Source of the DNA: Diplonema japonicum
Lineage: Eukaryota; Protista; Euglenozoa: Diplonemea
Assembly (NCBI GenBank): GCA_964019335.1
Contig: OZ025745.1
Location: 124,001-188,000, forward strand
Direction of reading: 5' to 3'
Length of the DNA: 64,000 nt
Notes under the pieces: generated by a model
What the model was told of the DNA's origin: nothing
Databases searched by the model: none
Seen by the model: only the letters and a program-made list of their open reading frames with translations
Shown: one piece after another, positions 6,523 to 63,842 of the stretch
Layout: each line of letters opens with the position of its first letter
Position numbering within the stretch: the first letter of the stretch is position 1
Program-made: the position numbers and the translations under genes

Positions 6523-6525
<3 letters not shown>

Positions 6526-6750
6526 CTATGATAGGAACAAAGTGGTTAGCAACGGCCCGCCGCGGTGGCGTGCCTACCTTATGATACTCCCCTTTTGGGG
6601 TCGTTCCCTGCTGCACCACCGTAGTGCCTAGCTGTCGTTTATATCTTCAATGGATCGTAGTGATCTCACGTTCTTGCATGACTGCGCCGGAAAAGCGCGT
6701 CTCCTCTTCTCCCTCATCCATGTCGCTTGCAGCGTATCCAGGATCCGCGC

Positions 6751-7834: not shown

Positions 7835-10061
7835 TCAAGATTTCGCCTTTCCTTCCTTGTCCCACATCCCCCACCCTTTCTCAGAAGGGTATATTGTGTC
7901 CTTGACAGAGTCGTAGACTGACGGCACCTTCGCGAGTTCCTCATAGGTCATTGGTACTGGGGCCTCGCCTCGGAGCTGTCCCCTTCTTCGGAGTTCCATC
8001 TCGAAGGCGCTGGCCTTCATGTCGGTCATCATGGTGTCTAGCTCAGCTCGTCTTTGTTGCTGCTCGTGGTACCGCCTCGCGCCTATTTGTGCTGATATGT
8101 CGTAGAATCCTGTCTTGTTCATGAATAGTTCCATGCCTGCCCCCGCTACAAACCCCGCCCCCGCAAGGATGGCTAGCTGTGGTTTTTTTTTTTTTTTTTT
8201 CTTTTTTTTTTTTTTTTTCTTGTATAACCCCTAAAGGCCCGGAGCCTATCTACGGTACCCCCCCATTTTCGTTGTTGCTTTAAATACTCAAAAAAAAGGG
8301 CAGCATGCAACCATAGGAAGGTGCAAGGAAAGGGTAAACGGTACTAAAATTTTCAATTCCAGGTGCCAGATTCAGATGAGAACACTTAACTATGTGTGTA
8401 AGAGGGGGGTTGAGGGGGTACTTTTTATGTCCGACTTTGGGGGGTCTTGTCGTGGGGGGTCCGTGGAGTTATGGCTGGGGTAAATAGGGCAGCATTCAGC
8501 CCTATTTGGTGCCCTGAACTCTAGGATTGAGGTCAGTCTGGAGACTTTTTGGGGCTGTGGGATGAAAAAAGCAACTTGTGAGCTTTTTTTCCAGCTGGGG
8601 TAGCATGCAAGGGTAAAAAACACGTTTTGCATAAGGGGGTTTTGCAACAGGGACACCACGTTTGCACCTTCTTCCCGTACCCAGGAACAGCACAGAGCAC
8701 CCTCCTCACCTTCGTTCCGTTCATCATGGTCTCGGAGGTGTGATTTAGGGTCAAATCGAGACGTTTTGGGTATTTCTGAGTGAGGGAATCCTCATTGCTA
8801 GCGTGTTTGCGCTTGGGGGTCGGTTTTGGGGGCATGGGTGAGAAGCTTGCCAACAAGTTCTTCTTTGAAGCTCGGGAAGCCATAATTTTTGCCACATTCC
8901 CTGCTCTTCTTCCAGATTATGGAGGAGTTGGCAACACAGCTTTCCAGGACCCAATAAAAAACGACCATGGTCCACTTCCGGGTTTTCATATGCCGAACTC
9001 CAGTCCCCTGGAGCTGGTCTTGCCGGTCAGGGGTCGACAGCAAACCCTTAGGAGTCGACAGTACGCATGACTAGGTCCTGTGTTGTGGACTTCTTGCTGA
9101 AAATGTTGAAATTCGCCAGGTAACAGTTTTATGAGTCGCATGTAGCGATTACCTTGATGCCCACCGAGTTGCTTTTTCGTGGTGCCATGACTTTTATTGT
9201 TGTCGGGATAACACTGTCGTCAACAGACAACCACTTGCCAGGGGTCCGCACAGTCCTACACCGGTTGACAATGATGTCAAGAAACCTGCGCATGACTTAC
9301 TGATGTTTTCCAGGTTGTCAAAGGTGAGGTAGCGCTGTATGTCAACGAATCGGTTTGCTCATTTTCTCAAAAGCCGGGATGGCTAAAATAGAATCTGTTG
9401 TCCAGTAGCTCTTCATATTCGGTGCCGGGCGTAAACCCATTAACAGGACCAACCCAAGCCAAATTTTGTACTCTGGGATGGAAAGATTCAGATTCTGCTG
9501 TTTTTTTGAATCGAAACGACCGTTCGTGGAAGAAACTATGAGCTCAAGTACCGCGTGTGTAAAAAAAAAGATTAAAAACACCCTCCTCATTGGCCGCTTC
9601 ACCTAGAGGTGTCCAAAGCCCACCTTTTCACGGAAATGATATGTTTTGGGCCTTTGGGAGTATTTCTCCCACCCAAGCATCGTTTCCGGCCCCTCTTTGA
9701 CCGCCTCATCGTCTTTTTCTTCTTTTTCTGACCAGTCGGGCGAGACTCACGTTTTCGCTGCTATTTTGACCATCTGATTTCATTTTAAGCCAACCCTGCC
9801 GGTTTCAATTAAAACAAAACTTTTAACGCAAAATGTAGTTCCAAGACAAAATAAACCGCGCAACAATGCCATATTTTGAAGTCCAGGGGCCGTGTTCAAA
9901 AAAAAAGTACTTAGCGAAAAAAGCAAATTTTGAAATAAGGACAAAAACGTCCGCGCGGGCGTTTAGGGGATAAATATAAAAATAAATACCACGCTCTGCC
10001 GATCTCGCTTCGACATTGCTAATGCCACGCTGTGCTGACGTGCTCTTAATGCTCTAAACAT
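7835..10061 (-). CDS. Small (~137 aa) membrane protein, probably mitochondrial, UPF0640/SMIM4-like; its single intron (8177-9989) contains a piggyBac element
   Basis: Exon 1 9990-10061 MFRALRARQHSVALAMSKRDRQSV (Arg-rich, transit-like); GTATTT...CCACAG intron; exon 2 LAILAGAGFVAGAGMELFMNKTGFYD... in frame with ORF 7835-8134. Family call is from recalled motif only. Confidence 0.6.
8228..9969 (-). mobile_element. Non-autonomous piggyBac-family DNA transposon, copy 1 (1742 bp)
   Basis: TIRs CCCCTAAAGGCCCG / CGGGCGTTTAGGGG; ATAA duplicated on both sides; broken transposase (LGLVLLMGL...SYW, LSVDDS, DRQDQ...KTRKW, C-terminal CPCCKTPLCKTCFLPLH Cys-rich domain). Confidence 0.92.
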
Positions 10062-12486: not shown

Positions 12487-12560
12487 AAAAAAAAAAAAAA
12501 AAAAGAGGGTTGTTGGTGGGAATGGAGAGAATGGTGGGGAAACTAGAAACAAAAAAAAAA

Positions 12561-12883
12561 TATATGAGTTAAAGGAGGCCGGTGTTGGCGGCGCCCTGCA
12601 CAACGAACTGTCTACTTGATTACAGGGGGCGCGCCGCGGCCGAGTTGTAGCTTCTTCTGCGTTCCGCGTCGTGTCCTTAATGCGTGCGGTGTACAGCTCA
12701 ACCCCAGCAGGTGCGTCCCGGGTAACCAAGATTCTGCGCTCGTGCAGTTTGCTGCCTGTTCGTCACCCTGAGCATCTGCATTATGTCTTCCACTCGGGCG
12801 CTACCGGTGATGACCGACGAGGAGGTCAACAGCGAACTATACATCTGATGTTTTTCTTATATTTTCATGTTATCCCCACCACC
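12561..12883 (-). mobile_element. Short non-coding retroposon (SINE/SIDER-like, 323 nt) headed by an HDV-like ribozyme
   Basis: Ribozyme at 5' end; 3' part recurs at ~25009-25094, 61250-61280 and 61767-61804; T-runs on both sides. Confidence 0.75.
12747..12883 (-). ncRNA. HDV-like self-cleaving ribozyme
   Basis: P1 GGTGGTG/CATCACC; P2 GTTCGCTGTTG/CAGGCAGCAAAC; P3 ACC/GGT; L3 TCCTCGTC; P1.1 GG; P4 CGCCC-GAGT/GCTC-A-GGGTG; J4/2 CGAA with catalytic-C equivalent at 12762. Confidence 0.8.
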
Positions 12884-12916
12884 TTGAAAAAAAAGAAAAA
12901 AGTAACAACACTTTCT

Positions 12917-17357: not shown

Positions 17358-17701
17358 CCCCTCCCCTCCTCTCCTTTTTTTTGTTGAAATGGTGGGTCTG
17401 ACTGTTGGGGGGGGGGGGGGGGAGAGAAATAAAAAAGGAGAAAAAAATAGAAAAAGAAGAAAAAAAAAGAGAAAGAGAGAACCCCCTCAACTTTTTTTTT
17501 TTGAAAAAAACAAGGGGAAAAACGGAAAAAGGGTATTCCCACTTGAGGACCATCCTTTAAAAAAAAGAAGAAACGAAGGGGGGGGGGGGGGGGAGAAGTC
17601 TCTGAACAAGGAGGGGAAAGGGGCTATGCGGTGCATGTAAAAAAAAAAAAAAAACTATTCTTTTAAGGTATGCGTTTTTGCGCTCACCGGCCGCGCTGCG
17701 C

Positions 17702-20700
17702 TTAGTCCCCGTTGTCCCCGTTCTGGGGGCTCTGGCGGGTTCCTACTGCGGTGGTCATGCTGCGGGGCAGCCTTGTCGGTGTCTGCGACAGGTACCTGTC
17801 CCGCAAGCCTTCGATGCTGCTCATGGTTCGTTCCGGGAGTACTGGCCTCCTGTCATACCCGTGTGTGGTCGGTCCTCCGATACAGCGTAGGGAGTTGACG
17901 CGCTCCACTCGCGCCGCTGGGAACGCTACCCCTCTGCCATCAGCGTGGTACAGGTCCTGGACTCGTCTCAGCACATACCGTAGCCTCCTTGCCTTGACGC
18001 CCAGGTCCTCCACCTTGCCCACTTCCCCGCCGTCGTCCAGCGGCAGCTCCATCTCCCGCTCGAAGTCGAGGGCCAGCTCTAACGTCGTCACCGCCGTGTG
18101 CCGACCAGGCGCGTCATCCCACAGCAGGCCTCCCAACCACCTCAGCACCGGCCTCAGCAGCTTGTCCATCACCGTTCCTGACGCCCCCAGCCTTCGTAGT
18201 TCAGATACCGCCGGCGTCGGGTGCGCCCTCCCCGTCACGACCGCCCGCCACGGGTAAGCTTGTGTCTGCAGTGCGCGGTTCGCTTCCACCGCTGCATCCC
18301 TCCGCGTGACTACCTCCAGCAGGTACTTCTGCACCAGTAAGGCCCTTGGCTTGTCTTGGCAGCCTCTGGGCACCACCCCATGGAGCCTCGTCGCCTTCGG
18401 CATAGCTGCCGGGTCCAGGTTCGCGTACTCCACCTTGCTCTGCACCGCGACACCCGGCTCGCATCGCCAGAGGGCGTGCTCCAGCACCTCCGTGTAGCTG
18501 CCGAACCGTTCCTCACACACGTCGCAGAGGTGCTGCAGCGGGTTGTTCGGTTCCTGCGCCACGCCCCGCGCTCCCGGGTAGACCGCAAACACCGCTCCTG
18601 CAATCAGCCTCCTCAGTCGGTACGCCGCCACTGGGTTGCCCGAGAGTGACCTCCACCACACGTTCGTGTCCGGGTCGGCTCCCTCCGGCATGCCGTCGTA
18701 GGAGTCCCTCCCTTCTGCTAGCTCGGCTGCCGTCATGGCCCTCGCCACCCGCCGGATCTCGTGCTTGCGCTCGCGTTCCGGCATGGCACCCAGCCCCACC
18801 ACGAAATTCCAGCCTTTCCCGATCGCCGGCAGCCATCTTCTCATCAGGGTCCCCACTGGCCCCAGGGCTTCAATATCGCACTCCCGGTACAGGGCGGCAC
18901 ACCTCCCCATCCGGTCCCACAGCTCCGTATCCGACCCGCCTACCTTCACCACTGTGCACAGCAGTCGGTAAAGTGTCACCACCAGCGGGTCCGTCGTGTG
19001 CCCTGGCAGCAAGACGTTCGCAACAGCACACGGCGAGCGCATCTTGAACTTCGGTCCCCAGAGGCACGTCGCAACACTCGCTCGGATTGTACCCGCATCC
19101 ATTTTCGAGGGGGGTGCATAGGCAACACCGTAGAGGCAGGAGGGGAGAATGGAGCTGGTGAGGATCCTCGCCTTCTGTGTGAACCCCAGCGGCATGGCGG
19201 CCAGTCTCCCGCAAGCGCGTCCCATCGCCTCAAGGGGCTTCGCCCTGTGCTCGCCGTCCATACATACCCGGACTCCCAGGACGTTGATCTCCTTTTTGGC
19301 CGTGAGCACCTCACGTCCGCACTTCACCGTTCCGTGTTCTGCCGTTGTGAACAGGTCTGTCTTCCTCAGGTTGAGGTTCATCCCTGTCAGCAGAGAGAAC
19401 TCGCACACCCCCGCTGCCGCCTTCTCCAGGGCGCTGAGCAGAGCTGCTATCAAGTAGACGTCGTCCGCGTATGACAGGGAATCAGCGCCGGGCACCTCCG
19501 CCATGATGGCCTTCACCATCACCCCTACCAGCGCGTTCACCATCACCACCGAGATCGGGCACCCCTGCAGGATGCCGTTCGACGTAGCAAATTCGTCACC
19601 CACCCCTGTCGGGTATTTGAACCTCCGTCTGAGGGATTCGTACATCGTCTCCAGAGGGCGCAGTATGTTCTGATGCAGTCCCAGGTCCCCCATTAGCCCG
19701 AGCGCCACTTCCCGCGGGATTCGGTCGAAGCACTTGACAAAGTCTAGCGCGAGCCCGTGCATCGGCGTTCCCGATAGCAGAGCTTCTTCGAGCTGCGTCG
19801 TCAGTTCCAGCAGTAGCGTGTCCGTACCCCTCCTCGACCTAAACCCATGTTGTGACGCGTCCGCCCACGACTCCTGCCAGACCAAGATGCGTCTCATCCT
19901 CGTTGTCGCCCACAGCCTGTACACGGCGCTGGTGACGGTGATCGGGCGGTGGTCCAACGGGGCTCTGCCCTCGCCTTTCGGGATCAGAGAGACAAGCGCT
20001 GTCAATAGCGCCTCCGGCCACTTGCCGGTCTCCTCGACGATGTTGAAGAGCTGCGCCCACCTCTCGAGCAGCGCGTCAGGTATAGCCTTCAGTTCCGTGA
20101 TCCTCCAGCCGTCGACGCCTGGGGTGCCCCTCGCAGGTCTGCTGTTTAACACCTCCCTGAGGTCGCCCCCCGTGATCGGCTCCAGTTCCATGGGGTGTTT
20201 ATCGATATACCCGCCATACCTCTCTTTGAAAGCAGCGTAGGAAGGTCGGTCACTTTTGTCCGGGTACAGGTGGAAGACGGAGGCCCATGCCCCCCTCATC
20301 AGCGCGTCTATCTCCCCCAGATCTACCGTCAGCCTGCCGTCCTCCTTCGCGACTGCCAATGTGTGAACATCCTTGTCACCTCTAACGTAAGCTACGATCC
20401 TCCGCCTGTCGTCACGGAAATCAGCTGCCACCCGTTTCCTATAACTTGCCTCGTTCTCCAGGCGTTGCCGCATCACCGTGTCTCTGTCAGCCTGCTCCGC
20501 CGCAGCCTCCAGCTCCCGCAGTCCCACCAGCGCAGCCCCCAGGCTAGCGCCCCGTAGCAGGTCCTTGTCCGGCACGACCCCAAGGTGCATCTTCTCGGCC
20601 AGCTTAACGATGTTCCGCCACGTCCCGTGCAGCATCGCTGGCAGCGTCCCCGGCCCACCACGCAGCAGTGCCTCGTTCAGCCCCGTCCTGAGCGCCACGA

Positions 20701-21823
20701 TTTTCCTCCTGAGGCTGCCGTGCATCGTCTGGCCTCGTGCGGCAGCTCCCCCTGACGTCCCCGTCGACTTCGCTGCTACCATCTTCTCCGTCAGCTCTCG
20801 CGGCTCTCCTCTGCCTACGTACGACCTCACCTCCGTCACTCCGGCTGAGCTCAGCATATAGCGTTCGGTAGCGCAGCTCAGCAAGGCGTAGAGGCCCCCC
20901 ACGTCCCTGGCGTCAACTGCTTGGTGGATTGCGTCGTCGCCGGCAAGCCCTTGGTCAAGATCAGCGTCGGGCGTCACCGCTCCCACCGGTAGCTCCTTCG
21001 GGAGGAAGAAACGTTTCGTCCGCTTCTTGAGCGTCGGCGTGAAGAGCTCAACGGACAGACACAGGTGCTCCCCGGTCCGCACCCTCTTGTGTGTCCAGAA
21101 GCGTTTCAGCGCTCCGGCAGCCACCGCGTTGGCCAGGACGAAGTCTATCCGCGTCTTCGTCTCCGTCCCGGGTCGTTCGAAGGTGTGGTCCGGTTCCCGT
21201 CCGTCCTTCTCGGCCTGAAGCGCCCCGACGTCGACCCAGTCGTTTTCCACCGCGTGTTTCAGCGTCGCTGACCCGGAAACGTCCGTGTTCAGATCCCCTA
21301 AGACCAGGATCGGCACCTCCCCGAGTTTAGCCCTCAGTTCAACGAGCAGCGAGTGTAGGAGTCGTTCCCTGTCAGCCTTCCCGTAGTGGCCGGCGCTGCA
21401 GTACACCGTGATGACGTGGACCCATAGATCGCGGCCATCCACATTTATCATAGTGTGCAGCCACCTGTTCGGCTGCACTGTGATCCCCGATACTGGAGCC
21501 ACGATGGCCGGCCTGCCTTTCTTCGTCAGCACAGCGACGCCCCCCCTTTGCCCAAGGTTTGGATTGAGTACCCCTGCCCTGTCCGGCGTGCCATCCTGAG
21601 CGCGACCCCACAGGGGGTGATACCCGCCTTCATCAACAGCTTGCGACAGTTGGCGTTGACCGTGCTCAGTGAGTTTGGTCTCCTGCAGGCAGATCACCTC
21701 ATCCTGCGTTGCTAGGACCTGCGGGAGCTTGTTGTGCAGGGACCCGACATTCACCGATGTGATCCGGAGCACGTCATCGAGCAGAGGTGGGCCACTAGCG
21801 CTTCCTCCACTCATCCCTGCCAC
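17702..21823 (-). CDS. LINE ORF2: apurinic-like endonuclease + reverse transcriptase + C-terminal Cys/His finger
   Basis: APE motifs SVNVGSL, LQET, GDLN, RIDFVL; RT motifs PGVDGW, RPIT, QHGFR, LDFVKCFD, GILQGCPIS, YADD (19460-19471); CDVC...H...C. First ATG at 21814; in frame with ORF1. Confidence 0.95.
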   Translation of the reverse strand: MAGMSGGSASGPPLLDDVLRITSVNVGSLHNKLPQVLATQDEVICLQETKLTEHGQRQLSQAVDEGGYHPLWGRAQDGTPDRAGVLNPNLGQRGGVAVLTKKGRPAIVAPVSGITVQPNRWLHTMINVDGRDLWVHVITVYCSAGHYGKADRERLLHSLLVELRAKLGEVPILVLGDLNTDVSGSATLKHAVENDWVDVGALQAEKDGREPDHTFERPGTETKTRIDFVLANAVAAGALKRFWTHKRVRTGEHLCLSVELFTPTLKKRTKRFFLPKELPVGAVTPDADLDQGLAGDDAIHQAVDARDVGGLYALLSCATERYMLSSAGVTEVRSYVGRGEPRELTEKMVAAKSTGTSGGAAARGQTMHGSLRRKIVALRTGLNEALLRGGPGTLPAMLHGTWRNIVKLAEKMHLGVVPDKDLLRGASLGAALVGLRELEAAAEQADRDTVMRQRLENEASYRKRVAADFRDDRRRIVAYVRGDKDVHTLAVAKEDGRLTVDLGEIDALMRGAWASVFHLYPDKSDRPSYAAFKERYGGYIDKHPMELEPITGGDLREVLNSRPARGTPGVDGWRITELKAIPDALLERWAQLFNIVEETGKWPEALLTALVSLIPKGEGRAPLDHRPITVTSAVYRLWATTRMRRILVWQESWADASQHGFRSRRGTDTLLLELTTQLEEALLSGTPMHGLALDFVKCFDRIPREVALGLMGDLGLHQNILRPLETMYESLRRRFKYPTGVGDEFATSNGILQGCPISVVMVNALVGVMVKAIMAEVPGADSLSYADDVYLIAALLSALEKAAAGVCEFSLLTGMNLNLRKTDLFTTAEHGTVKCGREVLTAKKEINVLGVRVCMDGEHRAKPLEAMGRACGRLAAMPLGFTQKARILTSSILPSCLYGVAYAPPSKMDAGTIRASVATCLWGPKFKMRSPCAVANVLLPGHTTDPLVVTLYRLLCTVVKVGGSDTELWDRMGRCAALYRECDIEALGPVGTLMRRWLPAIGKGWNFVVGLGAMPERERKHEIRRVARAMTAAELAEGRDSYDGMPEGADPDTNVWWRSLSGNPVAAYRLRRLIAGAVFAVYPGARGVAQEPNNPLQHLCDVCEERFGSYTEVLEHALWRCEPGVAVQSKVEYANLDPAAMPKATRLHGVVPRGCQDKPRALLVQKYLLEVVTRRDAAVEANRALQTQAYPWRAVVTGRAHPTPAVSELRRLGASGTVMDKLLRPVLRWLGGLLWDDAPGRHTAVTTLELALDFEREMELPLDDGGEVGKVEDLGVKARRLRYVLRRVQDLYHADGRGVAFPAARVERVNSLRCIGGPTTHGYDRRPVLPERTMSSIEGLRDRYLSQTPTRLPRSMTTAVGTRQSPQNGDNGD

Positions 21824-21841
21824 AAGCTGTAATTGCTATTG
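21824..21841 (-). promoter_or_regulatory. Stop-codon readthrough signal CAA TAG CAA TTA CAG (UAG-CARYYA, TMV type)
   Basis: Minus strand reads CAA CAA TAG CAA TTA CAG CTT GTG GCA GGG ATG, with ORF1 and ORF2 in the same frame. Confidence 0.8.
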
Positions 21842-24127
21842 TTGTTGTTGTTGCACCGGCCCTTGGGGCAGCAGTAGCGGGGTGGCCGGGTGCTGTGGGT
21901 CGACCTGCATCTGTCCCGTTGGTGTGCTAGCGGTGGATCTCGTGCCGGACTTCGAGACCTTCCCGCCCTTTTCCTCACCTCCTGCCGTCCTCTTCCGACT
22001 AGCACTGCTCGTCAACGCCACCGCCGCCAACTCGGCAAGCTGTTGTTCCACGTCCATCAAACGCATTTGCGTGCTCTCCTGCGCCTTCTGCATCCGAGTG
22101 ATCTTTGCCAGGGCCTCTCGTAGTGCCTGCGCCATCGCCTGCTGGTCCGCCTGCCTCCTCTCCTGCTCGAGTCGAAGCTTCGCCATCGTCTCCTCGTGTC
22201 GGCGGTCCTTTTCGGCGTACTCGGCCTCCTTGGGCTGCCACCACGAGTGGAACGATTGCTCGGCTCCCTCACTCCGCGTCGGTCGCTTGGCAGGTCGAGG
22301 TTGTGCGGCGGGCCGCAGGGGTGGGAAGTCGCTCGTCTTGTTCTTGGTCGCAGGTGGAGGGGGAGGCTTATGTGCTGGCTTCTTTGCCCCACCCTTGCTC
22401 CCCCACGTGGAGTGCTTCAGGAGGTCTCCTTCCGCACCGTGCGGCCGGATCAGCCACTGCTCGTCGCCGCTCTCGAACATGAGGCCTGGTGGATCAGCCT
22501 CCGACGCTACCAGCCATGTGCAGGTTTTTCTGCCACTCGCCAGTACGCGCACCGCTTGTGCTGCCCACCCGATCGCGCGCAGCCTCTGCTCCACCACCAG
22601 CCCCGGGACCTGCGTTCCCATCCCCTTGACCGTGAAGGGGGCCCCCTTGATCGGCACCGGACGGCGGTCCTTCACCTTCTTCGCGGTCCTGTTGTGGAGG
22701 AAGGCCACCATTTCTTCTAGTCGTTCTGCTTTCACGCGGATCCCGTACTCTCCCGTGCCCTTGCTCCATGCCACCCCCAGCCCGTCTGCCTGCTTTGCGA
22801 GGAGAGCGGCGTCAGTCGCCGAGGCGCCTTCGATCCACAGAACGGGAAATTTGCTCGTCGATTGGTGTGGGGGACGTACATAGACTCCACCGGTCCCACT
22901 GTGTCGGTACAGGGTCTCCAGGTCCGCTCGGGCAACTACCATGCACAGCTCGGCGCAGCCGTCCCTCTTCGATCCCGTCCTCGGCTCGACCCGCGCCGTG
23001 CACTTGCTCGCGGCCCAGCGAACGAGGTCCCTCCTTGCGTCGTGGTAGTCCTTCTTGGTCCTCTCCACCAAGTAGACCTCGGCAGCACAGCTCTCGACCG
23101 CGGGGACTACCACCGTCTTCTTGACCTGCTTCAGGGGTGCGCCGCCCTTCGCCGTCACCCACAGCCTGCGCACACACCTGCCCTTGCCGCCGTCGGTCGC
23201 CAGCACCACCTGCTCCAGTACTCCCGGCATCGTGGGGAGTTTGGCCCTGGACACCAAGGTGGGTCCTTCCTTGTCGTCTGCGTCCATCAGCCACAGGGAC
23301 GCCACCTTTTCCATACCTGCAGGGACGAGCAGGACCGATCTGTTCCTGCCCACCTGCGGCGTCCAGTCGCCGGAGAATGCCTCCCAGCCGTCACTCACCA
23401 GCACCGCGTCGTCTTTCGTCGTTGCCTCGTTGTCACCGTCCTCGGCGTCCTTCGTTTCCTTAGCCTTTCGGGCTGCTGCCGCTCTCCTCTTCGCGCTCTC
23501 GCTCAGGAAGGGCATGGGCACCTTCGGGTTGTTGTAGGTGCCTGCTGCCGGGAGCGTTGTGCCCTCACGCACCGACAGCGCCACGTAATGGGCGGCAGCG
23601 AACCCCAGGTATATGGTGCTCTCTACCGCGTTGCGCGAGGGGAAGGAGGTGCACAACAGCTCCCCGTCCTTCACCTGGTAGCAGGCCAGGTGGCGCCGGC
23701 ACACCACGCTGAGCGCGAGGAGCTGCAGGATGTCCCCCCACGCTCCGTCCTTCACTGCTTGCACATATTCCCCGTAGCGCTCGGGGGCATACAGCAGTGC
23801 ACTGTTGTCGGTTGATGCCAGGTGGCTAGCCACCAGCTCCCTCAAGGCCGATCCAGCAGAGGTGCCCTGATGGATCGCTACTGATGTCGCCTCGTAGAGG
23901 CAGTCCCCCTCCGTCTTGGAGAAGTCTCTGATCGAGAACCCTTCTCCCAGCTTCGCCTGAAGCTCCGCCTTCGCCTTGCCCACCTCGCTTCCCGTTCCCG
24001 TCCCGCGGCCGGAGCCTTCGCCGCTACCACCACCCCCCATGTGGCAGCGTTGCCCGGGGTTCAACCTCGAGGAGGTCGCTCCCACCGCGCTGGACGTCGA
24101 TGATAGTGTTGGTGTTGATGTTGCCAT
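21836..24127 (-). CDS. LINE ORF1 with N-terminal OTU-like cysteine protease domain and C-terminal coiled coil
   Basis: EGDCLYEA (Cys 23900-23902) ... LRELVASHL ... YVQAVKDGAWGDILQLLALS ... IYLGFAAAHYVAL (His 23588-23590) follows the OTU signature. Confidence 0.85.
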   Translation of the reverse strand: MATSTPTLSSTSSAVGATSSRLNPGQRCHMGGGGSGEGSGRGTGTGSEVGKAKAELQAKLGEGFSIRDFSKTEGDCLYEATSVAIHQGTSAGSALRELVASHLASTDNSALLYAPERYGEYVQAVKDGAWGDILQLLALSVVCRRHLACYQVKDGELLCTSFPSRNAVESTIYLGFAAAHYVALSVREGTTLPAAGTYNNPKVPMPFLSESAKRRAAAARKAKETKDAEDGDNEATTKDDAVLVSDGWEAFSGDWTPQVGRNRSVLLVPAGMEKVASLWLMDADDKEGPTLVSRAKLPTMPGVLEQVVLATDGGKGRCVRRLWVTAKGGAPLKQVKKTVVVPAVESCAAEVYLVERTKKDYHDARRDLVRWAASKCTARVEPRTGSKRDGCAELCMVVARADLETLYRHSGTGGVYVRPPHQSTSKFPVLWIEGASATDAALLAKQADGLGVAWSKGTGEYGIRVKAERLEEMVAFLHNRTAKKVKDRRPVPIKGAPFTVKGMGTQVPGLVVEQRLRAIGWAAQAVRVLASGRKTCTWLVASEADPPGLMFESGDEQWLIRPHGAEGDLLKHSTWGSKGGAKKPAHKPPPPPATKNKTSDFPPLRPAAQPRPAKRPTRSEGAEQSFHSWWQPKEAEYAEKDRRHEETMAKLRLEQERRQADQQAMAQALREALAKITRMQKAQESTQMRLMDVEQQLAELAAVALTSSASRKRTAGGEEKGGKVSKSGTRSTASTPTGQMQVDPQHPATPLLLPQGPVQQQQQ

Positions 24128-24158
24128 AATGTTTCTTTTAACCCAAATTCAGAACCCC
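24005..24158 (-). ncRNA. HDV-like self-cleaving ribozyme at the LINE 5' end, overlapping ORF1
   Basis: P1 GGGGTTC/GAACCCC; P2 GCGGT-G-GGAGC/GCTCC-G-GCCGC; P3 ACC/GGT; L3 TCCTCGA; GG-GCAA; P4 CGCTGCCAC/GTGGTAGCG; J4/2 GCGAA with catalytic-C equivalent at 24020. Confidence 0.88.
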
Positions 24159-25008
24159 TGAAAAAAAAAAAAAAAAAATGGCAGTGTTCAAAACTCCATT
24201 TTTTAATTTCCCCTTCCGGCCTCTCAGTGCAGGAAAAAGGACCAAAAGAAAAGGAGAAAAACTAACACAAGAAAAAAAAGGGGTAAAGTGCAATAATGTG
24301 AAGACCGGACAGGGGTGGTGGTGGCAGTGGAGGGAAAGGTACAAGAAACTTTACGTACCCCTTCCTTTTCTATTTCTTTTTTTTTTTATTTTGTGAACTC
24401 TCCCCTCCTTTGTTTATATTCTTCTCTTTCTATTTTTTTTTTTCTTCGATTTTCAAAACAAACAAGATAGAGTGTCAGGGCACGAAAAGAATGTTGGGAA
24501 CAAAAAAAGAAGAGAGAGAAAAAAAATGGGGCAAACCGGAGCACAGCCATTTTAAGTTTCCTCTCCCCCCCACTTTTTTTTCTTTGTTCCTCTTTGGCTT
24601 TCGCCTACAAAAAACAGGGGCCCAAAAGAAGGGCTTAACTGTTATTATTTCTTCTTTTCCGTCCAGAAAGATCTCCTGAAGAAAATAATTTAAAAAAAAA
24701 AAAATTCAAATTAACATGCAAGCCCCTAAGACGAAAGCCGCACGCCCTAAAAAAGGGAAGGGTAGGTCAATACTAGGTATCTCAGTTTCGGTCAAATCTC
24801 GCGACTCCGTCAGGTGCTGCCTCTTACGGCGAGAGGCACCCCTCAATAGCTCCTACCAGCGTCCCACAGGTTGGAGAGTACTTTTCCCGACCAAAAAAAA
24901 AATATATATATGTGTTAAAGGAAGTCTTTGTGAGACGCCCCCTTGTTCTCATCTTCTACCTGCAAAAAAGAAAGAAAAAGAACCTCGGTGATTCATGTAC
25001 TAGACTAG

Positions 25009-25094
25009 GTGGCGCCTTGCACAAGCAATGTCTACTTAATACAGGGGACGCACCTCGGCCGAGCTGTAGCTTTTTGATTCGTGCGGTGTGCAGC
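25009..25094 (-). repeat. Degenerate fragment of the 12561-12883 element
   Basis: ggcgccttgcacaagcaatgtctacttaatacaggggacgcacctcggccgagctgtagc aligns to 12590-12651. Confidence 0.7.
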
Positions 25095-29772: not shown

Positions 29773-30295
29773 CTATTCTGTTAACTGAATCGTCCAATAC
29801 TACCTATAGGCGGTCTTGCAACGACCACCACAGCCATCGCCAACGTGCCAAAAAATGGGCTAAACTCGCACACTGGTGTGAGCTTCAAGGGAGCTAAACG
29901 TTTCAGACATGGCGTGCCACACCCATAGGCCTCACGACCGGGGAGGGGGGCATTTATCTTTCGCCCGTAAGCTAGAGTGCGCATGCATCCCCAGCTCGCT
30001 TTGGGAGGTGTTGCCAACACCTGGGTCGCTTCGCGGTCCGACCTGCTGCCCAATTCAAAGCGCGGTTGCGGTGAATCCAAGCCCCCTAAGCATCGACACG
30101 ATTAACAAAGGGGTTTGTTACGCCGGGATATCTTGTTCACCAATGCTCCATACGCCCCCTGTTGCCAGTTCGCCGGATGAGCATACTGCAGGGTCTTCCA
30201 CTCATCCGTTGCCCGGTGGGTACCACGAGGAGGTCAGCAACAATTCTATACTTTTGGCCACGTAGGGCCTGTTCTACATTTAGTATAGTCCCACC
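29773..30295 (-). mobile_element. Short non-coding retroposon (523 nt) headed by an HDV-like ribozyme
   Basis: No convincing ORF. Begins T17-CA|GG like the LINE and ends TTAACAGAATAG-T14 versus LINE TTAAAAGAATAG-T16. Confidence 0.7.
30159..30295 (-). ncRNA. HDV-like self-cleaving ribozyme
   Basis: P1 GGTGGG(A)/(A)CCCACC; J1/2 stem CTATACT/AGTATAG; P2 TTGTTGCTG/C(T)GGCAACAG; P3 ACC/GGT; L3 TCCTCGT; GG-GCAA; P4 CGGATGAG/CTCATCCG; GCGAA with catalytic-C equivalent at 30172. Confidence 0.85.
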
Positions 30296-30451
30296 TGAAA
30301 AAAAAAAAAAAAAACCAGGGAAAACAGGTGAAAAAAACCAATAAAAATGAGGGGAGGGGAGAGAGTGGGGACAAGGGGGGGGGGGGGGGGGGAGAAAAGA
30401 AAAAAATAGTGTACGTGGAAAGCATTTTTTTTTTTAAAAGAAAAGAACTTA

Positions 30452-30655
30452 CTAGACCCCCTTGACCTGCTCCGCAGGTGGAATGCATTGCATCACACAC
30501 CCGTGGTAGGTCTGTTTAACCACTGGTGGAGGGGGTGCCTTCTTTTTGTTCAACTTTGAGTAGTCAATCGGCCCACAAGACTCCTTGTAAATGTTGTCCT
30601 TCATGTCATCCTTCCCAAAGGTACTCATGCTGTGTAAAGTGTGGTTCTTGTACAT
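30452..30655 (-). CDS. 67-aa microprotein, copy 1
   Basis: Protein identical to 32699-32902; the 5 nucleotide differences I find are all synonymous. Confidence 0.75.
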   Translation of the reverse strand: MYKNHTLHSMSTFGKDDMKDNIYKESCGPIDYSKLNKKKAPPPPVVKQTYHGCVMQCIPPAEQVKGV

Positions 30656-30753
30656 TTTCTTTTTTTTTTTTTCCGGCTTGTTGTATAAGTGTAGAGACCT
30701 TTTTTTTTGTTTTTGTTGTTGTGTGCTTTTTTTTTTTTCTTTTTTTTTTTTAT

Positions 30754-32538
30754 CCCCTAAACGCCCGGAGCCTATCTACGGTACCCCCCCATTTTCGTTG
30801 TTGCTTTAAATACTCAAAAAAAGGGCAGCATGCAACCATAGGAAGGTGCAAGGAAAGGGTAAACGGTACTAAAATTTTCAATTCCAGGTGCCAGATTCAG
30901 ATGAGAACACTTAACTATGTGTGTAAGAGGGGGGTTGAAGGTGTACTTTTTATGTCCGATTTTGGGGGGTCTTGTCGTGGGGGGTCCGTGGAGTTATGGC
31001 TGGGGTAAATAGGGCAGCATTCAGCCCTATTTGGTCCTGAACTCTAGGATTGAGGTCAGTCTGGAGACTTTTTGGGGCTGTGGGATGAAAAAAGCAACTT
31101 GTGAGTTTTTTTCCAGCTGGGGTAGCATGCAAGGGTAAAAAACACGTTTTGCATAAGGGGGTTTTGCAACAGGGACACCACGTTTGCACCTTCTTCCCGC
31201 ACCCAGGAACAGCACAGAGCACCCTCCTCACCTTCGTTCCGTTCATCATGGTCTCGGAGGTGTGATTTAGGGTCAAATCGAGACGTTTTGGGTATTTCTG
31301 AGTGAGGGAATCCTCATTGCTAGCGTGTTTGCGCTTGGGGGTCGGTGACGGTGTTGTCGGGGAGTGTGTGCTATCGGTTTTGGGGGCATGGGTGAGAAGC
31401 TTGCCAACAAGTTCTTCTTTGAAGCTCGGGAAGCCATAATTTTTGCCACATTCCCTGCTCTTCTTCCAGATTATGGAGGGGTTGGCAACACGGCTTTCCA
31501 GGACCCAATAAAAAACGACCATGGTCCACTTCCGGGTTTTCATATGCCGAACTCCAGTCCCCTGGAGCTGGTCTTGCCGGTCAGGGGTCGACAGCAAACC
31601 CTTAGGAGTCGACAGTACGCATGACTAGGTCCTGTGTTGTGGACTTCTTGCTGAAAATGTTGAAATTCGCCAGGTAACAGTTTTATGAGTCGCATGTAGC
31701 GATTACCTTGATGCCCACCGAGTTGCTTTTTCGTGGTGCCATGACTTTTATTGTTGTCGGGATAACACTGTCGTCAACAGACAACCACTTGCCAGGGGTC
31801 CGCACAGTCCTACACCGGTTGACAATGATGTCAAGAAACCTGCGCATGAGGTGCAGTTTCAGGCCTTCCAAATGCTTTCCAGGTTGTCAAAGGTGAGGTA
31901 GCGCTGTATGTCAACGAATCGGTTTGCTCATTTTCTCAAAAGCCGGGATGGTTAAATTAGAATTTGTTGTCCAGTAGCTCTTCATGTTCGGTGCCGAGCG
32001 TAAACCCATTAACAGGACCAACCCAAGCCAAATTTTGTACTCTGGGATGGAAAGATTCAGATTCCGCTGTTTTTTTGAACCGAAACGACCGTTCGTGGAA
32101 GAAACTATGAGCTCAAGTACCGCGTGTGTAAAAAAAAAGATTAAAAACACCCTCCTCATTGGCCGCTTCACCTAGAGGTGTCCTAAGCCCACCTTTTCAC
32201 GGAAATGATATGTTTCGGGCCTTTGGGAGTATTTCTCCCACCCAAGCATCGTTTCCGGCCCCTCTTTGACCGCCTCATCGTCTTTTTCTTCTTTTTCTGA
32301 CCAGTCGGGCGAGACTCACGTTTTCGCTGCTATTTTGACCATCTGATTTCATTTTAAGCCAACCCTGCCGGTTTCAATTAAAACAAAACTTTTAACGCAA
32401 AATGTAGTTCCAAGACAAAATAAACCGCGCAACAATGCCATATTTTGAAGTCCAGGGGCCGTGTTCAAAAAAAAAGTACTTAGCGAAAAAAGCAAATTTT
32501 GAAATAAGGACAAAAACGTCCGCGCGGGCGTTTAGGGG
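30754..32538 (-). mobile_element. Non-autonomous piggyBac-family transposon, copy 2 (1785 bp)
   Basis: Perfect 14-bp TIR CCCCTAAACGCCCG; TTAT duplicated on both sides; same broken transposase as copy 1. Confidence 0.92.
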
Positions 32539-32698
32539 TTATTCGGAAAAAATTCAAAAAAAAAGTGTAAAATTTATAACAAATAAATATAAGTCAAGTG
32601 TAGTGAGATAAAAAGGAAGAAGAAAAAAGCGGAGGGAAAAAGGAGAAAAAATTCAAAAAAAAAAAAATAACTCCTTCCCCTCCCCAGCACGCAACTCC

Positions 32699-32902
32699 CT
32701 AAACCCCCTTGACCTGCTCCGCAGGTGGGATGCATTGCATCACACACCCGTGGTAGGTCTGCTTGACCACTGGTGGAGGGGGTGCCTTCTTTTTGTTCAA
32801 CTTTGAGTAGTCAATCGGCCCGCAAGACTCCTTGTAAATGTTGTCCTTCATGTCATCCTTCCCAAAGGTACTCATGCTGTGTAAAGTGTGGTTCTTGTAC
32901 AT
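32699..32902 (-). CDS. 67-aa microprotein, copy 2
   Basis: MYKNHTLHSMSTFGKDD...CIPPAEQVKGV*; duplicate of 30452-30655. Confidence 0.75.
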   Translation of the reverse strand: MYKNHTLHSMSTFGKDDMKDNIYKESCGPIDYSKLNKKKAPPPPVVKQTYHGCVMQCIPPAEQVKGV

Positions 32903-33250
32903 TTTTTTTTTTTTTTTTTTTTTTTTCGTGGGGTATCTGTGGAGAAAAAATTCAGCTGGGGGAAAGAAAAAAAAAAGGAACAAAATGAAATTGGGTGCAC
33001 TGGGTACAAAGCGGGGGGGGTGGAGGGGAGGGGGGAAGGGAAAAGAGAGTACGTGGAGCAAAAGAAAAAAAAAAGGAGGGAGGGTAAGCGGGGGGGGGGG
33101 GGGGGGGACAACAGAGAATAAAAAAAAACTTTTTTTTCGTATCGGGAACGGGGAAGAGGACACTCGAAAACAAAAAAAAGAGAAAAAAAAAAAAGAAATA
33201 CACTAAAAAAAAAAAAAAATAAAAAAAAAAAAAAAAACACCCCTACCATT

Positions 33251-55774: not shown

Positions 55775-55899
55775 TCACTATGATAGGAACGAAGTGGTTA
55801 GCAACGGCCCGCCGCGGTGGCGTGCCTACCTTATGATGCTCCCCTTTTGGGGTCGTTCCCTGCTACCCACCGTAGTGCCTAGCTGTCGTTTATATCTTC
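55775..55899 (-). repeat. Shorter copy of the LINE 3' end found at 6523-6752
   Basis: Near-identical to 6523-6648; flanked by T-runs on the minus strand. Confidence 0.85.
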
Positions 55900-60613: not shown

Positions 60614-61766
60614 TCACCCCTCTCTTTTTTTTTTCTTTTTTTCTGGCTGCTGGATTCAAAAGCCAGAGTTGGAGGCTCGTGATGATCTCCTTCATCCTCC
60701 CCTTCTTTTTTTTTTTTTTTTTTCTTCCTATCTTTCTTCTTCAAGCCCAACGATCGGTTCATTTTTATTTCTTCTTTTTATATTGGATTTGGGGGGGGAA
60801 AAAAAAAACTGGTCATCATCAAATCACAGTACACCAAATCTGATCTTTGGCATTTCTTTTCCCCCCACAACAGATCACCCCCTCTGACTGGCTAAGTTCC
60901 CTCTTCCATTCCCCTCCCCCTTAACCTTCCAAAGTCTGCGTAATCAGCATTTTGAGAAAACACCGCTCAACTACAACTAGGCAGGAGAAACAGGGGAGAA
61001 AATGGGGTGGAAAGGGGGAAGAAGGGGAGGGGGGGGGGGGGGAAGAAAAAAAAGAGAAAAAAAAAAGAGAACAACATTCAATGTTTGCCCCGTATGTATC
61101 CTTTTTTTTTTTTTTTTTTTCTTCTCTTCTTTCATTTCGAGAGAGGAAGCAGCTGTACTAGGGACGCTTTCTTCTTTTTCTGGTTTTTATTTCTCTTTTT
61201 TTTGGGGGATATCAGCGTTTCGATCAAAAAAAAAAGGGAAAAAAAAAAATAAAGGAGGCCAGTGTTGGTGGCGACCTGCAAAAAAAGAAAAAAGAAAAAA
61301 AAAAAGACTATTACTTGGCGTTAAGTAGGGAGGGAACCCAAATCCAAGTTTTCCACCTTTTGCTTTTCCACTTTGAATCTAAAGGGCCTCCCGGAGGGAA
61401 TTTTTGGGGGAAGAAAAAGCTACCTAGAAAGGAGGGCCTTTCATAAAGTAATATGGATGGGGGTGGGGGGTGGGAAGGGAATAGCAACTCACTTGAACAA
61501 TATAAAAAAAAAAAGAAATTAGACAAGTTTTGCATTTTTTCTTTTCTTCTTCATTTCTTTTTTTTTCTTTTCTTACCCCCCAGTTTTGTCCTATTTTTGT
61601 GGGTCCCCCGTTTTTTTTTTTTACGGTTGGGCTGAAAAAAAAGAAGGGGAAAGGAAAGTACGATTTGTATTTGTATTTTTTCCCCCCCTTTTTTTATTTT
61701 CATTCCTACAAATTCAAGGGGAGGAAAACACGCACACACAAAAGAGAAAAGAAGATATAAAAAAAA

Positions 61767-61804
61767 TATATGAGTTAAAGGAGGCCGGTGTTGGCGGCGC
61801 CCTG
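61767..61804 (-). repeat. 5'-truncated 3' end of the 12561-12883 element (another fragment at 61250-61280)
   Basis: tatatgagttaaaggaggccggtgttggcggcgccctg is identical to 12561-12598. Confidence 0.8.
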
Positions 61805-61822: not shown

Positions 61823-62778
61823 CCCCTAAAGGCCCGGAGCCTATCTACGGTACCCTCCCATTTTCGTTGTTGCTTTAAATACTCAAAAAAAGGGCAGCAT
61901 GCAACCATAGGAAGGTGCAAGGAAAGGTAAACGGTACTAAAACTTTCAATTCCAGGTGCCAGATTCAGATGAGAACACTTAACTATGTGTGTAAGAGGGG
62001 GGTTGAGGGGGTACTTTTTATGTCCGTTTTGGGGGGTCTTGTCGTGGGGGGTCCGTGGAGTTATGGCTGGGCTAAAAAGGGCAGCATTCAGCCCTATTTG
62101 GTGCCCTGAACTCTAGGATTGAGGTCAGTCTGGAGACTTTTTGGGGCTGTGGGATGAAAAAAGCAACTTGTGAGTTTTTTTTTCTAGCTGGGGTAGCATG
62201 CAAGGGTAAAAAACACGTTTTGCATAAGGGGGTTTTGCAACAGGGGCACCACGTTTGCACCTTCTTCCCGTACCCAGGAACAGCACAGAGCACCCTCCTC
62301 ACCTTCGTTCCGTCTTGAATCGAAACGACCGTTCGTGGAAGAAACTATGAGCTCAAGTACCGCGTGTGCAAAAAAAAAGATTAAAAACACCCTCCTCATT
62401 GGCCGCTTCACCTAGAGGTGTCCTAAGCCCACCTTTTCACGGAAATGATATGTTTTGGGCCTTTGGGAGTATTTCTCCCACCCAAGCATCGTTTCCGGCC
62501 CCTCTTTGACCGCCTCATCGTCTTTTTCTTCTTTTTCTGACCAGTCGGGGGAGACTCACGTTTTCGCTGCTATTTTGACCATCTGATTTCATTTTAAGCC
62601 AACCCTGCCGGTTTCAATTAAAACAAAACTTTTAACGCAAAATGTAGTTCCAAGACAAAATAAACCGCGCAACAATGCCATATTTTGAAGTCCAGGGGCC
62701 GTGTTCAAAAAAAAAGTACTTAGCGAAAAAAGCAAATTTTGAAATAAGGACAAAAACGTCCGCGCGGGCGTTTAGGGG
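61823..62778 (-). mobile_element. Internally deleted piggyBac derivative, copy 3 (956 bp)
   Basis: Same TIRs; ATAA duplicated on both sides; ~800-bp deletion with junction near 62313. Confidence 0.92.
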
Positions 62779-63842
62779 ATAAAGAAAAAAATTCTTAAAG
62801 CTTTTGAAAAAGAATATAAAAAAAAAAATTCACACAGGAATTTTGTACCTCCCTGCAGTTTTTTCTTTCTCTCTCTTCTTTTATTCGTTCGCTTTTTTTT
62901 TCTCTTCCCCCCCCCCTCCCCTTCAGCGTCAAAAGAATTTATATGTTTAATTAAAACCGAATATCTTTTTCTTTTTAGAAATAGATCCTCTCAGCACCCG
63001 TTTGAATTCCCCTGAGGGGCACTGGGTAGTTCTTAGGATTTTGATACTTTTATTTTTCTTTTTTACTTTTTTTTTTCTCTTCGTTTTTCTTCGTTCTGAT
63101 TTGGAAAATCTTTTTTTTGGAAGTCTTTTTTTTTCTTTCTCCTTTGTTTCTCGAGCTTGAGGGGGTATTTTTTTTTTTTTTGTTCGCCCTGCTCTTGCGC
63201 GTACTGACTTACTTTTATGGGGAGGGGGAAGCTCGGGGGTTTTCCCCTTCCAGTTTTGTTGCTACTTCTGCCTAATTTCTTTGAAGTTCTTGTCTCACCA
63301 AATATCGGAAAGACCTCCAAAAAAAAGAAGGGGGGAAAAAAAAAAAGAAGAAAAACAATAACAACAACAAAACTACGGGGGGTTGATCAAATTACTTTTT
63401 TTTTCCTTCTTTTTTTCGCTTCTTTCCTTTTTTTTTTTTTTTTTTTTTTGAAACTTTCTTAATGAAGGTAGAACAGCCAATCACACAAGAATAGTACATG
63501 TGAATAAGAAAGAAAGAAGAAAAAAAAGGGGGAGATTTACATAGTACGGGGGGGGGGGGGGGATTAGCAACTACACCCCCCCCCAAAAAAATAACATTGC
63601 CAATAAGTCAGTCTCAGCATTCAAATCCCTTCTGCCTCCTCTTTTTGGCCACGCCTTCTCAAATTGGCATGAAAAAGACCAAAGGGTCATGCCAACCGCA
63701 AGAAGAAACAGAATAAAAAGGAAGAATGGGGAATGACAATATTTTTTTTCTTTTTTTTTTTTTTTTAAAGGATGGAGGTGCTAACTTAACCCCCGCCCCC
63801 GCTCTTTTTTTTTTTTTTTTTTTAAATAAAATATCCCCGAGA

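Follow-up and report, generated by a model that had tools for sequence, protein, structure and literature searches.

Predicted HDV-like ribozymes head three element families, one of them an intact LINE, in a Diplonema japonicum contig

A stretch of 64,000 nucleotides (nt) from the diplonemid Diplonema japonicum (contig OZ025745.1, positions 124,001 to 188,000 of the forward strand; hereafter the window, numbered from its first letter) carries a 323-nt repeat, e1 (12561..12883, minus strand), that begins with a sequence able to fold like the hepatitis delta virus (HDV) ribozyme. An earlier note had read this fold as the third of its kind in the window, had considered its structure to be under selection and had suggested that such ribozymes could shape host mRNA processing. 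What kind of element carries the fold, and does the ribozyme serve that element or its host? We conclude, with a probability of about three in four, that e1 is transcribed together with host genes, that the predicted ribozyme frees it at its first nucleotide (G1), and that it is copied into a T-run by the enzyme of a long interspersed nuclear element (LINE).

Three HDV-like folds at element boundaries

Three HDV-like folds were found, all on the minus strand, with G1 at 12883 (e1), 24158 (e2) and 30295 (e3), and each begins exactly at an element boundary. The five helices of the nested double pseudoknot (P1, P1.1, P2, P3 and P4, in order) are present in all three. The core decamer GACCTCCTCG occurs exactly three times in the window, each time on the minus strand (12818-27, 24068-77 and 30226-35). 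The L3 sequence UCCUCG is common to the three folds and fits the HDV-like L3 feature (U..G plus CC), and CGAA stands at every catalytic-C position (12762, 24020 and 30172), that is, a J4/2 C followed by a purine and A, as in HDV-like ribozymes. L3 and the catalytic C were placed by HDV numbering. The constant core that had been described for the three ribozymes was thus recovered.

The e1 fold occupies 12742..12883 (minus strand), as judged from its helix table and a descriptor match. Its P1 (12883-77/12812-06) consists of six Watson-Crick pairs and one G-U pair, P2 (12842-27/12758-42) pairs at 14 of 16 positions, P3 (12826-24/12815-13) has 3 bp, P1.1 (12822-21/12805-04) has 2 bp, and P4 (12800-91/12774-64) has 10 pairs around a single bulge. 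L3 (12823-16) reads UCCUCGUC, J1/2 is A-rich, and the catalytic C lies within ACGAA. The other two folds, at 24011..24158 (e2, the 5' end of a LINE) and 30161..30295 (e3), both on the minus strand, each stand behind T17-CA. The ribozyme heads span about 135-150 nt.

Two folds matched a canonical descriptor, and all three matched once a 4-bp P3 was allowed; the descriptor was written after the sequences had been seen and also admits weaker alternative G1s (12880 and 24197). When the relaxed descriptor was run on block-wise dinucleotide shuffles (n=1000), 11 gave a single match and none gave two. The HDV-like fold is therefore far above chance, and the proposal of a third HDV-like fold at 12883 stands.

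When the two P1 strands come from the same family, 7, 7 and 6 of 7 positions pair, which bears out the pairing claimed for the quoted strands; strands taken from different families pair at 3-5. Likewise, the first five P4 pairs form at 5, 5 and 5 positions within families and at 2-4 across them. Four of the seven P1 columns changed on both sides across families, in an alignment by hand of three divergent sequences. Among the e1 variants listed, 16 positions lie in the ribozyme: five in the P4 loop, four in J1/2, three in outer P2, two in the P4 stem, one at L3 position 4 and one in P2. None of those listed falls in P1, P3, P1.1 or J4/2; as the listing is incomplete (12833 and 12745, for example, appear in one list and are missing from another), the absence of variants at catalytic CpGs is not taken as proof. 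The paired changes across the three families support selection on the fold, and with it this part of the earlier claim. Selection acts most simply on the mobile element itself, since a ribozyme travelling with every full copy is a known exit from read-through transcripts (PMC3383444, PMC3414825). The element's own replication would account for the conservation of the fold.

A short element, a LINE and their relatives

Each of the three ribozymes heads an element family of its own; they are not copies of one repeat. The first, e1, begins at G1, is 323 nt long and is followed at its 3' end by a T10 run (12551..12560, minus strand), likely a duplicated target run; it has no poly(A) tail. Contigs of other e1 copies also run into A-runs at plus-strand positions 12547-51. 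T-runs flank the full-length elements on both sides and are the only possible target-site duplication seen. The element is non-coding; its longest ATG-started frame, of 48 residues, was treated as chance. Contigs matching e1 numbered 15,984 in run X1, 4,793 in X3, 1,459 in X5 and 548 in X11; runs with small word shares (X13, X14 and X16-X24) were left out of the analysis. Contig depth is no copy number; we infer thousands of genomic copies, in agreement with the dispersed 323-nt repeat described earlier. A family this abundant offers a deep natural mutational scan of the HDV-like fold. Neither a Pol III A/B box, nor a tRNA, nor an Rfam small-RNA head was found in e1, which ruled out a classical tRNA-, 5S- or 7SL-headed short interspersed nuclear element (SINE).

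Three 3'-derived fragments had also been reported. Two are 5'-truncated e1 copies on the minus strand: 61767..61804, identical to the 3' 38 nt and lying between T-rich runs, and 61250..61283, 34 nt at 88% identity, which ends about 10 nt short of the terminus. The third (25008..25094, minus strand) proved to be a decayed internal piece of the 3' half that starts at a T-run and lacks the terminus; a separate short piece (24905..24961, minus strand) has an e1-like 3' terminus on a different body. The position of the elements in T-runs, close to a LINE that carries a similar head, supports 5'-truncated retroposition as the probable source of these pieces.

At positions 12838 and 12840, in outer P2, the window copy disagrees with about 97% or more of the family signal, which marks it as slightly diverged. 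CpG transitions make up 14 of the 40 variant rows listed (of 81); 12 of them reach 11-20% in X1 and no more than 5% in X11. This decay reaches P4 and P2 (12795, 12799 and 12833, at 12-23% in X1). DNA-like runs are thus rich in CpG variants that the RNA-like run almost lacks, a hint of cytosine methylation of repeats. Silent copies that decay through methylation, with intact ones being expressed, would fit this pattern, provided that X11 is RNA and comes from the same organism, both uncertain because that run bears a different organism label. DNA methyltransferase homologs are reported for Diplonema papillatum (PMC10161547).

The e2 fold begins a LINE of 6,504 nt (17655..24158, minus strand) with both open reading frames (ORFs) open and T-runs at both ends. 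ORF1 (21836..24127, minus strand; 763 residues) contains an OTU domain at residues 72-161, and ORF2 (17702..21814, minus strand; 1370 residues) contains Exo_endo_phos and RVT_1; RNase H gave no match in the LINE at E<=0.01. The ORF1 start codon lies inside the ribozyme J1/2, 31 nt after G1, and thus the ribozyme core is also coding. The ribozyme-encoded peptide is kept in the transcript-derived relatives P0066 and P0067 (96% and 80%), and a search of 56 LINE relatives gave no convincing case of it. Intact LINE ORFs and the e1 fragment of 100% identity suggest that mobility is ongoing.

All named close relatives of the LINE come from D. papillatum; these auto-annotated, uncurated APE-RT (apurinic endonuclease and reverse transcriptase) LINE proteins share 39-50% identity over the aligned reverse transcriptase region. 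A profile search added only two further proteins. The closest relative of known structure is human L1 ORF2p (162 bits). No named ingi/L1Tc sequence was among the matches of the protein or profile searches, no relatives were found in viral contigs, and the Atlas search gave no usable match to ORF1. The OTU domain also occurs in several unnamed relatives, and a 2A-like NPGP motif occurs in 7 of the 56 relatives and not in the window LINE. The literature search returned no paper joining a non-LTR (long terminal repeat) retrotransposon, OTU, a cysteine protease and ORF1.

The third element, e3 (29773..30295, minus strand), is a ribozyme-headed, non-coding element of 523 nt. The e1 and e3 heads are homologous (alignment score 92, versus 56 for the best of 100 shuffles), and neither gave a significant alignment with the 5' end of the window LINE. 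The last ~13 nt of e3 resemble the LINE 3' end, whereas the e1 3' end has nothing in common with the LINE beyond TTAA. The window LINE is likely the partner of e3, because their 3' ends are similar; the partner of e1 is probably a sister LINE, because the e1 tail differs from that of the window LINE.

The junction at G1 and how e1 may move

A minus-strand T-rich tract followed by CAAG (12883..12901), whose AG ends at G1, is a likely trans-splice acceptor, judged from its sequence and from a leader end in run X11. A T-run plus CAG or CAAG ends at G1 in all three full-length window elements. CAG or CAAG follows 7 of 155 minus-strand T-runs (at least 8 nt), three of the seven being the full-length elements, and 0 of 139 on the plus strand. 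One X11 contig, probably RNA and possibly derived from any e1 family copy, continues from 12883 with 12 letters matching the 3' terminus of spliced leaders from euglenozoans (sequences from the table in PMC3795323). Since 12883 is the last position of the genomic AG and G is the last letter of the leader, the leader G would replace G1 and leave P1 intact. Other e1 copies show a T-run directly on G1 (two contigs, X15) or CA plus G1 (one contig, X12), and pieces of other copies end at 12880-12884. Variable 5' junctions are known for R2 elements cleaved at the 5' end (PMC3774820). Summed contig depth falls across G1 by 2.8x in X11, 6.9x in X15 and 1.7x in X1; these values were not used, as RNA ends are not visible in contigs. 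What is surprising in these data is that the predicted cleavage site coincides with a likely trans-splice site, a reading that draws on three window junctions and one contig.

In the account that we favor, the predicted ribozyme would cut e1 from a host polycistronic transcript at G1, and a LINE-encoded endonuclease and reverse transcriptase would paste it into sense-strand T-runs by target-primed reverse transcription. Incomplete copying would leave 3' fragments. Insertion would re-add 0-3 bases at the 5' end, the last of them often an A, and the host T-run would become a trans-splice acceptor whose G is G1. There is good support and clear precedent for e1 as a retroposon with a ribozyme head; cleavage is predicted. 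We infer cleavage, target-primed reverse transcription at T-runs, the re-addition of 5' bases and the identity of the partner. Both R2 and L1Tc are known to be released from co-transcripts and to have variable junctions (PMC3774820, PMC3414825, PMC4035085). One of the three ribozymes starts an intact APE-RT LINE, and all 17 ORFs of at least 300 residues lie on one strand together with the seven pieces of these families.

Several observations weigh against this account. Plain minimum free energy folding was no better than shuffles (z = 1.01, -0.47 and -0.52), and Rfam returned no HDV-type family either at the gathering threshold or among 100 matches at E<=5. Long J1/2 inserts and pseudoknots are poorly captured by Rfam-type models. 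The covariation comes from three hand-aligned sequences, and the contig variants are unphased. The base of P4 is UAG/A in e1 and of the HDV-type GCAA/G in e2 and e3; moreover, the e1 J1/2 is long and unstructured, a feature that slows such ribozymes (PMC4908430). A partner LINE for e1 was not found. CA or CAA precedes G1 in all three full-length window elements, and a cut at G1 should erase these bases unless they are re-added. The leader-joined form implies that at least some RNA escapes cleavage. The favored account leaves unexplained the recurrence of CA before G1 and the orientation of the pieces: all seven family pieces are sense-oriented (two-sided p about 0.02-0.03, for pieces that are not fully independent) despite even T-runs on both strands.

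Rival readings overlap with this account rather than exclude it. In the first, which is possible though rather unlikely, trans-splicing would use the AG whose G is G1, the last G of the leader would rebuild P1, and the ribozyme would later remove the capped leader. A translatable LINE mRNA would thereby become an uncapped template, and the leader would be kept out of new copies. The acceptor-like end at G1 in all three full-length elements, rare elsewhere, the 12 leader letters joined at 12883 and the start of ORF1 31 nt after G1 all speak for this order of events, which would also address the recurrence of CA but does not explain how CA is inherited. The leader was seen in one contig of one run, with RNA status guessed and at the e1 junction only; no leader end appeared in X15 among the rows listed, and some copies have no AG. 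Tentatively, the RNAs of diplonemid LINEs and their short passengers might decap themselves in this way and so turn from mRNA into retrotransposition template, with a cleavage site that coincides with an acceptor built from the invaded T-run, at thousands of sense-strand gene-cluster sites.

The CA before G1 might instead be inherited from an uncut template, which we consider doubtful. Here, cDNA would reach the upstream U-run, anneal to the target T-run and carry CA plus G1 along, with the fold serving mainly as a protective 5' structure or for occasional release. CA or CAA stands before G1 in the three full-length elements and in the X12 contig, and not clearly in the truncated pieces; annealed junctions and a stabilizing HDV fold are known for R2 (PMC3774820, PMC11331408). 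However, all three families retain the catalytic positions, and some junctions lack CA.

It is unlikely that copies are retained by the host as SIDER2-like cis-elements that cut or destabilize host mRNAs or set their 3' ends. The uniformly sense orientation among T-runs of about equal number (155 versus 139), the position of copies in T-runs just upstream of host genes, the long 3' untranslated regions of D. papillatum (PMC10161547) and the SIDER precedent (PMC4035085) would all suit such a role. The intact LINE ORFs and the 100%-identical fragment, however, suggest ongoing mobility; CpG decay in genomic copies, P4 and P2 included, resembles that of ordinary dying transposon copies; and there is no sign of in-place conservation or of the window copy in mature host mRNA. 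By analogy, an effect of ribozyme copies on host mRNA processing is possible. Finally, a chance or inactive fold would suit the lack of an Rfam match and the near-zero z-scores, but is very improbable given that none of the 1000 shuffles gave two matches and that each fold starts exactly at an element boundary.

Comparison with known elements, and significance

By analogy, e1 likely works in the manner of NARTc/RIME/SIDER and R2 SIDEs, as a non-autonomous retroposon released by its ribozyme from polycistronic RNA. As with NARTc/RIME/SIDER and L1Tc/ingi, a short non-coding element accompanies an APE-RT LINE, both headed by HDV-like ribozymes, in a euglenozoan host with one-strand gene clusters (PMC4035085, PMC3383444). 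Compared by architecture, Pr77 of L1Tc/ingi has 77 nt and a 1-bp P1.1 (PMC3185411), whereas the heads described here have 135-150 nt, a long J1/2 and a 2-bp P1.1. Ingi encodes APE, reverse transcriptase and RNase H and has a poly(A) tail (PMC12278014); the window LINE gave no RNase H match, has a T-run tail and, unlike ingi, carries a separate OTU-bearing ORF1. L1Tc RNA is reported without a spliced leader (PMC3185411, PMC3383444), whereas one contig here has the leader at G1. Membership in the L1Tc/ingi clade was not assigned, as the head differs in size from Pr77 and neither an RNase H match nor a poly(A) tail was found in the LINE.

Drosophila R2 SIDEs also combine a ribozyme head with a 3' end for the LINE enzyme and show variable 5' junctions; known hybrids join the head of one element to the tail of another (PMC3414825, PMC3774820). 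Unlike R2 SIDEs, the window elements are dispersed in T-runs rather than in ribosomal DNA, are associated with an APE-type LINE and reach very high copy. Moreover, the e1 and e3 heads are homologous to each other, and the alignments do not support a simple internal deletion of the window LINE. For the LINEs of D. papillatum, the passages and seven supplements of the genome paper that were searched (PMC10161547) make no mention of a ribozyme or partner SINE. A diplonemid ribozyme was likewise found neither there nor in the literature searched, which included few subscription papers; Additional file 1 (repeats) possibly lies outside these supplements and could bear on novelty. A search of JGI metagenomes for the pattern of T-run, CAGG and core gave two loci, 99.9% identical over their overlap; their P1 was unpaired and no reverse transcriptase matched, and they were attributed to chance.

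Other repeats were also observed in the window. A 126-nt repeat (6523-6648 and 55775-55899, minus strand; 97% identical), followed by T-runs on the same strand, probably represents the 3' portion of a further retroposon family with a T tail. Three elements (8228-9972, 30754-32541 and 61823-62781) that are related and have inverted termini, with a Cys-rich ORF remnant at 30950-31543, are likely copies of a DNA transposon, presumably piggyBac-like. A 213-nt flank duplication (30446-30658 and 32693-32905) lies beside the second of these. Apparent cis-introns on the minus strand (16230, 33818, 41591 and 27830) terminate in CAG directly after a long A-run, and many have a T-run earlier in the intron; the retroposons, by contrast, sit in T-runs, which may set cis acceptors apart from trans acceptors.

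These results extend ribozyme-headed retroposons from trypanosomatids to an uncharacterized diplonemid LINE lineage. That lineage is accompanied by several short passenger families, apparently targets T-runs and has a predicted ribozyme that is at the same time part of the ORF1 reading frame. Should the leader junction at G1 prove functional, it would help to explain how ribozyme-processed LINE RNAs serve as both mRNA and template, and the ribozyme would be a natural example of one that cuts off a cap gained by trans-splicing.
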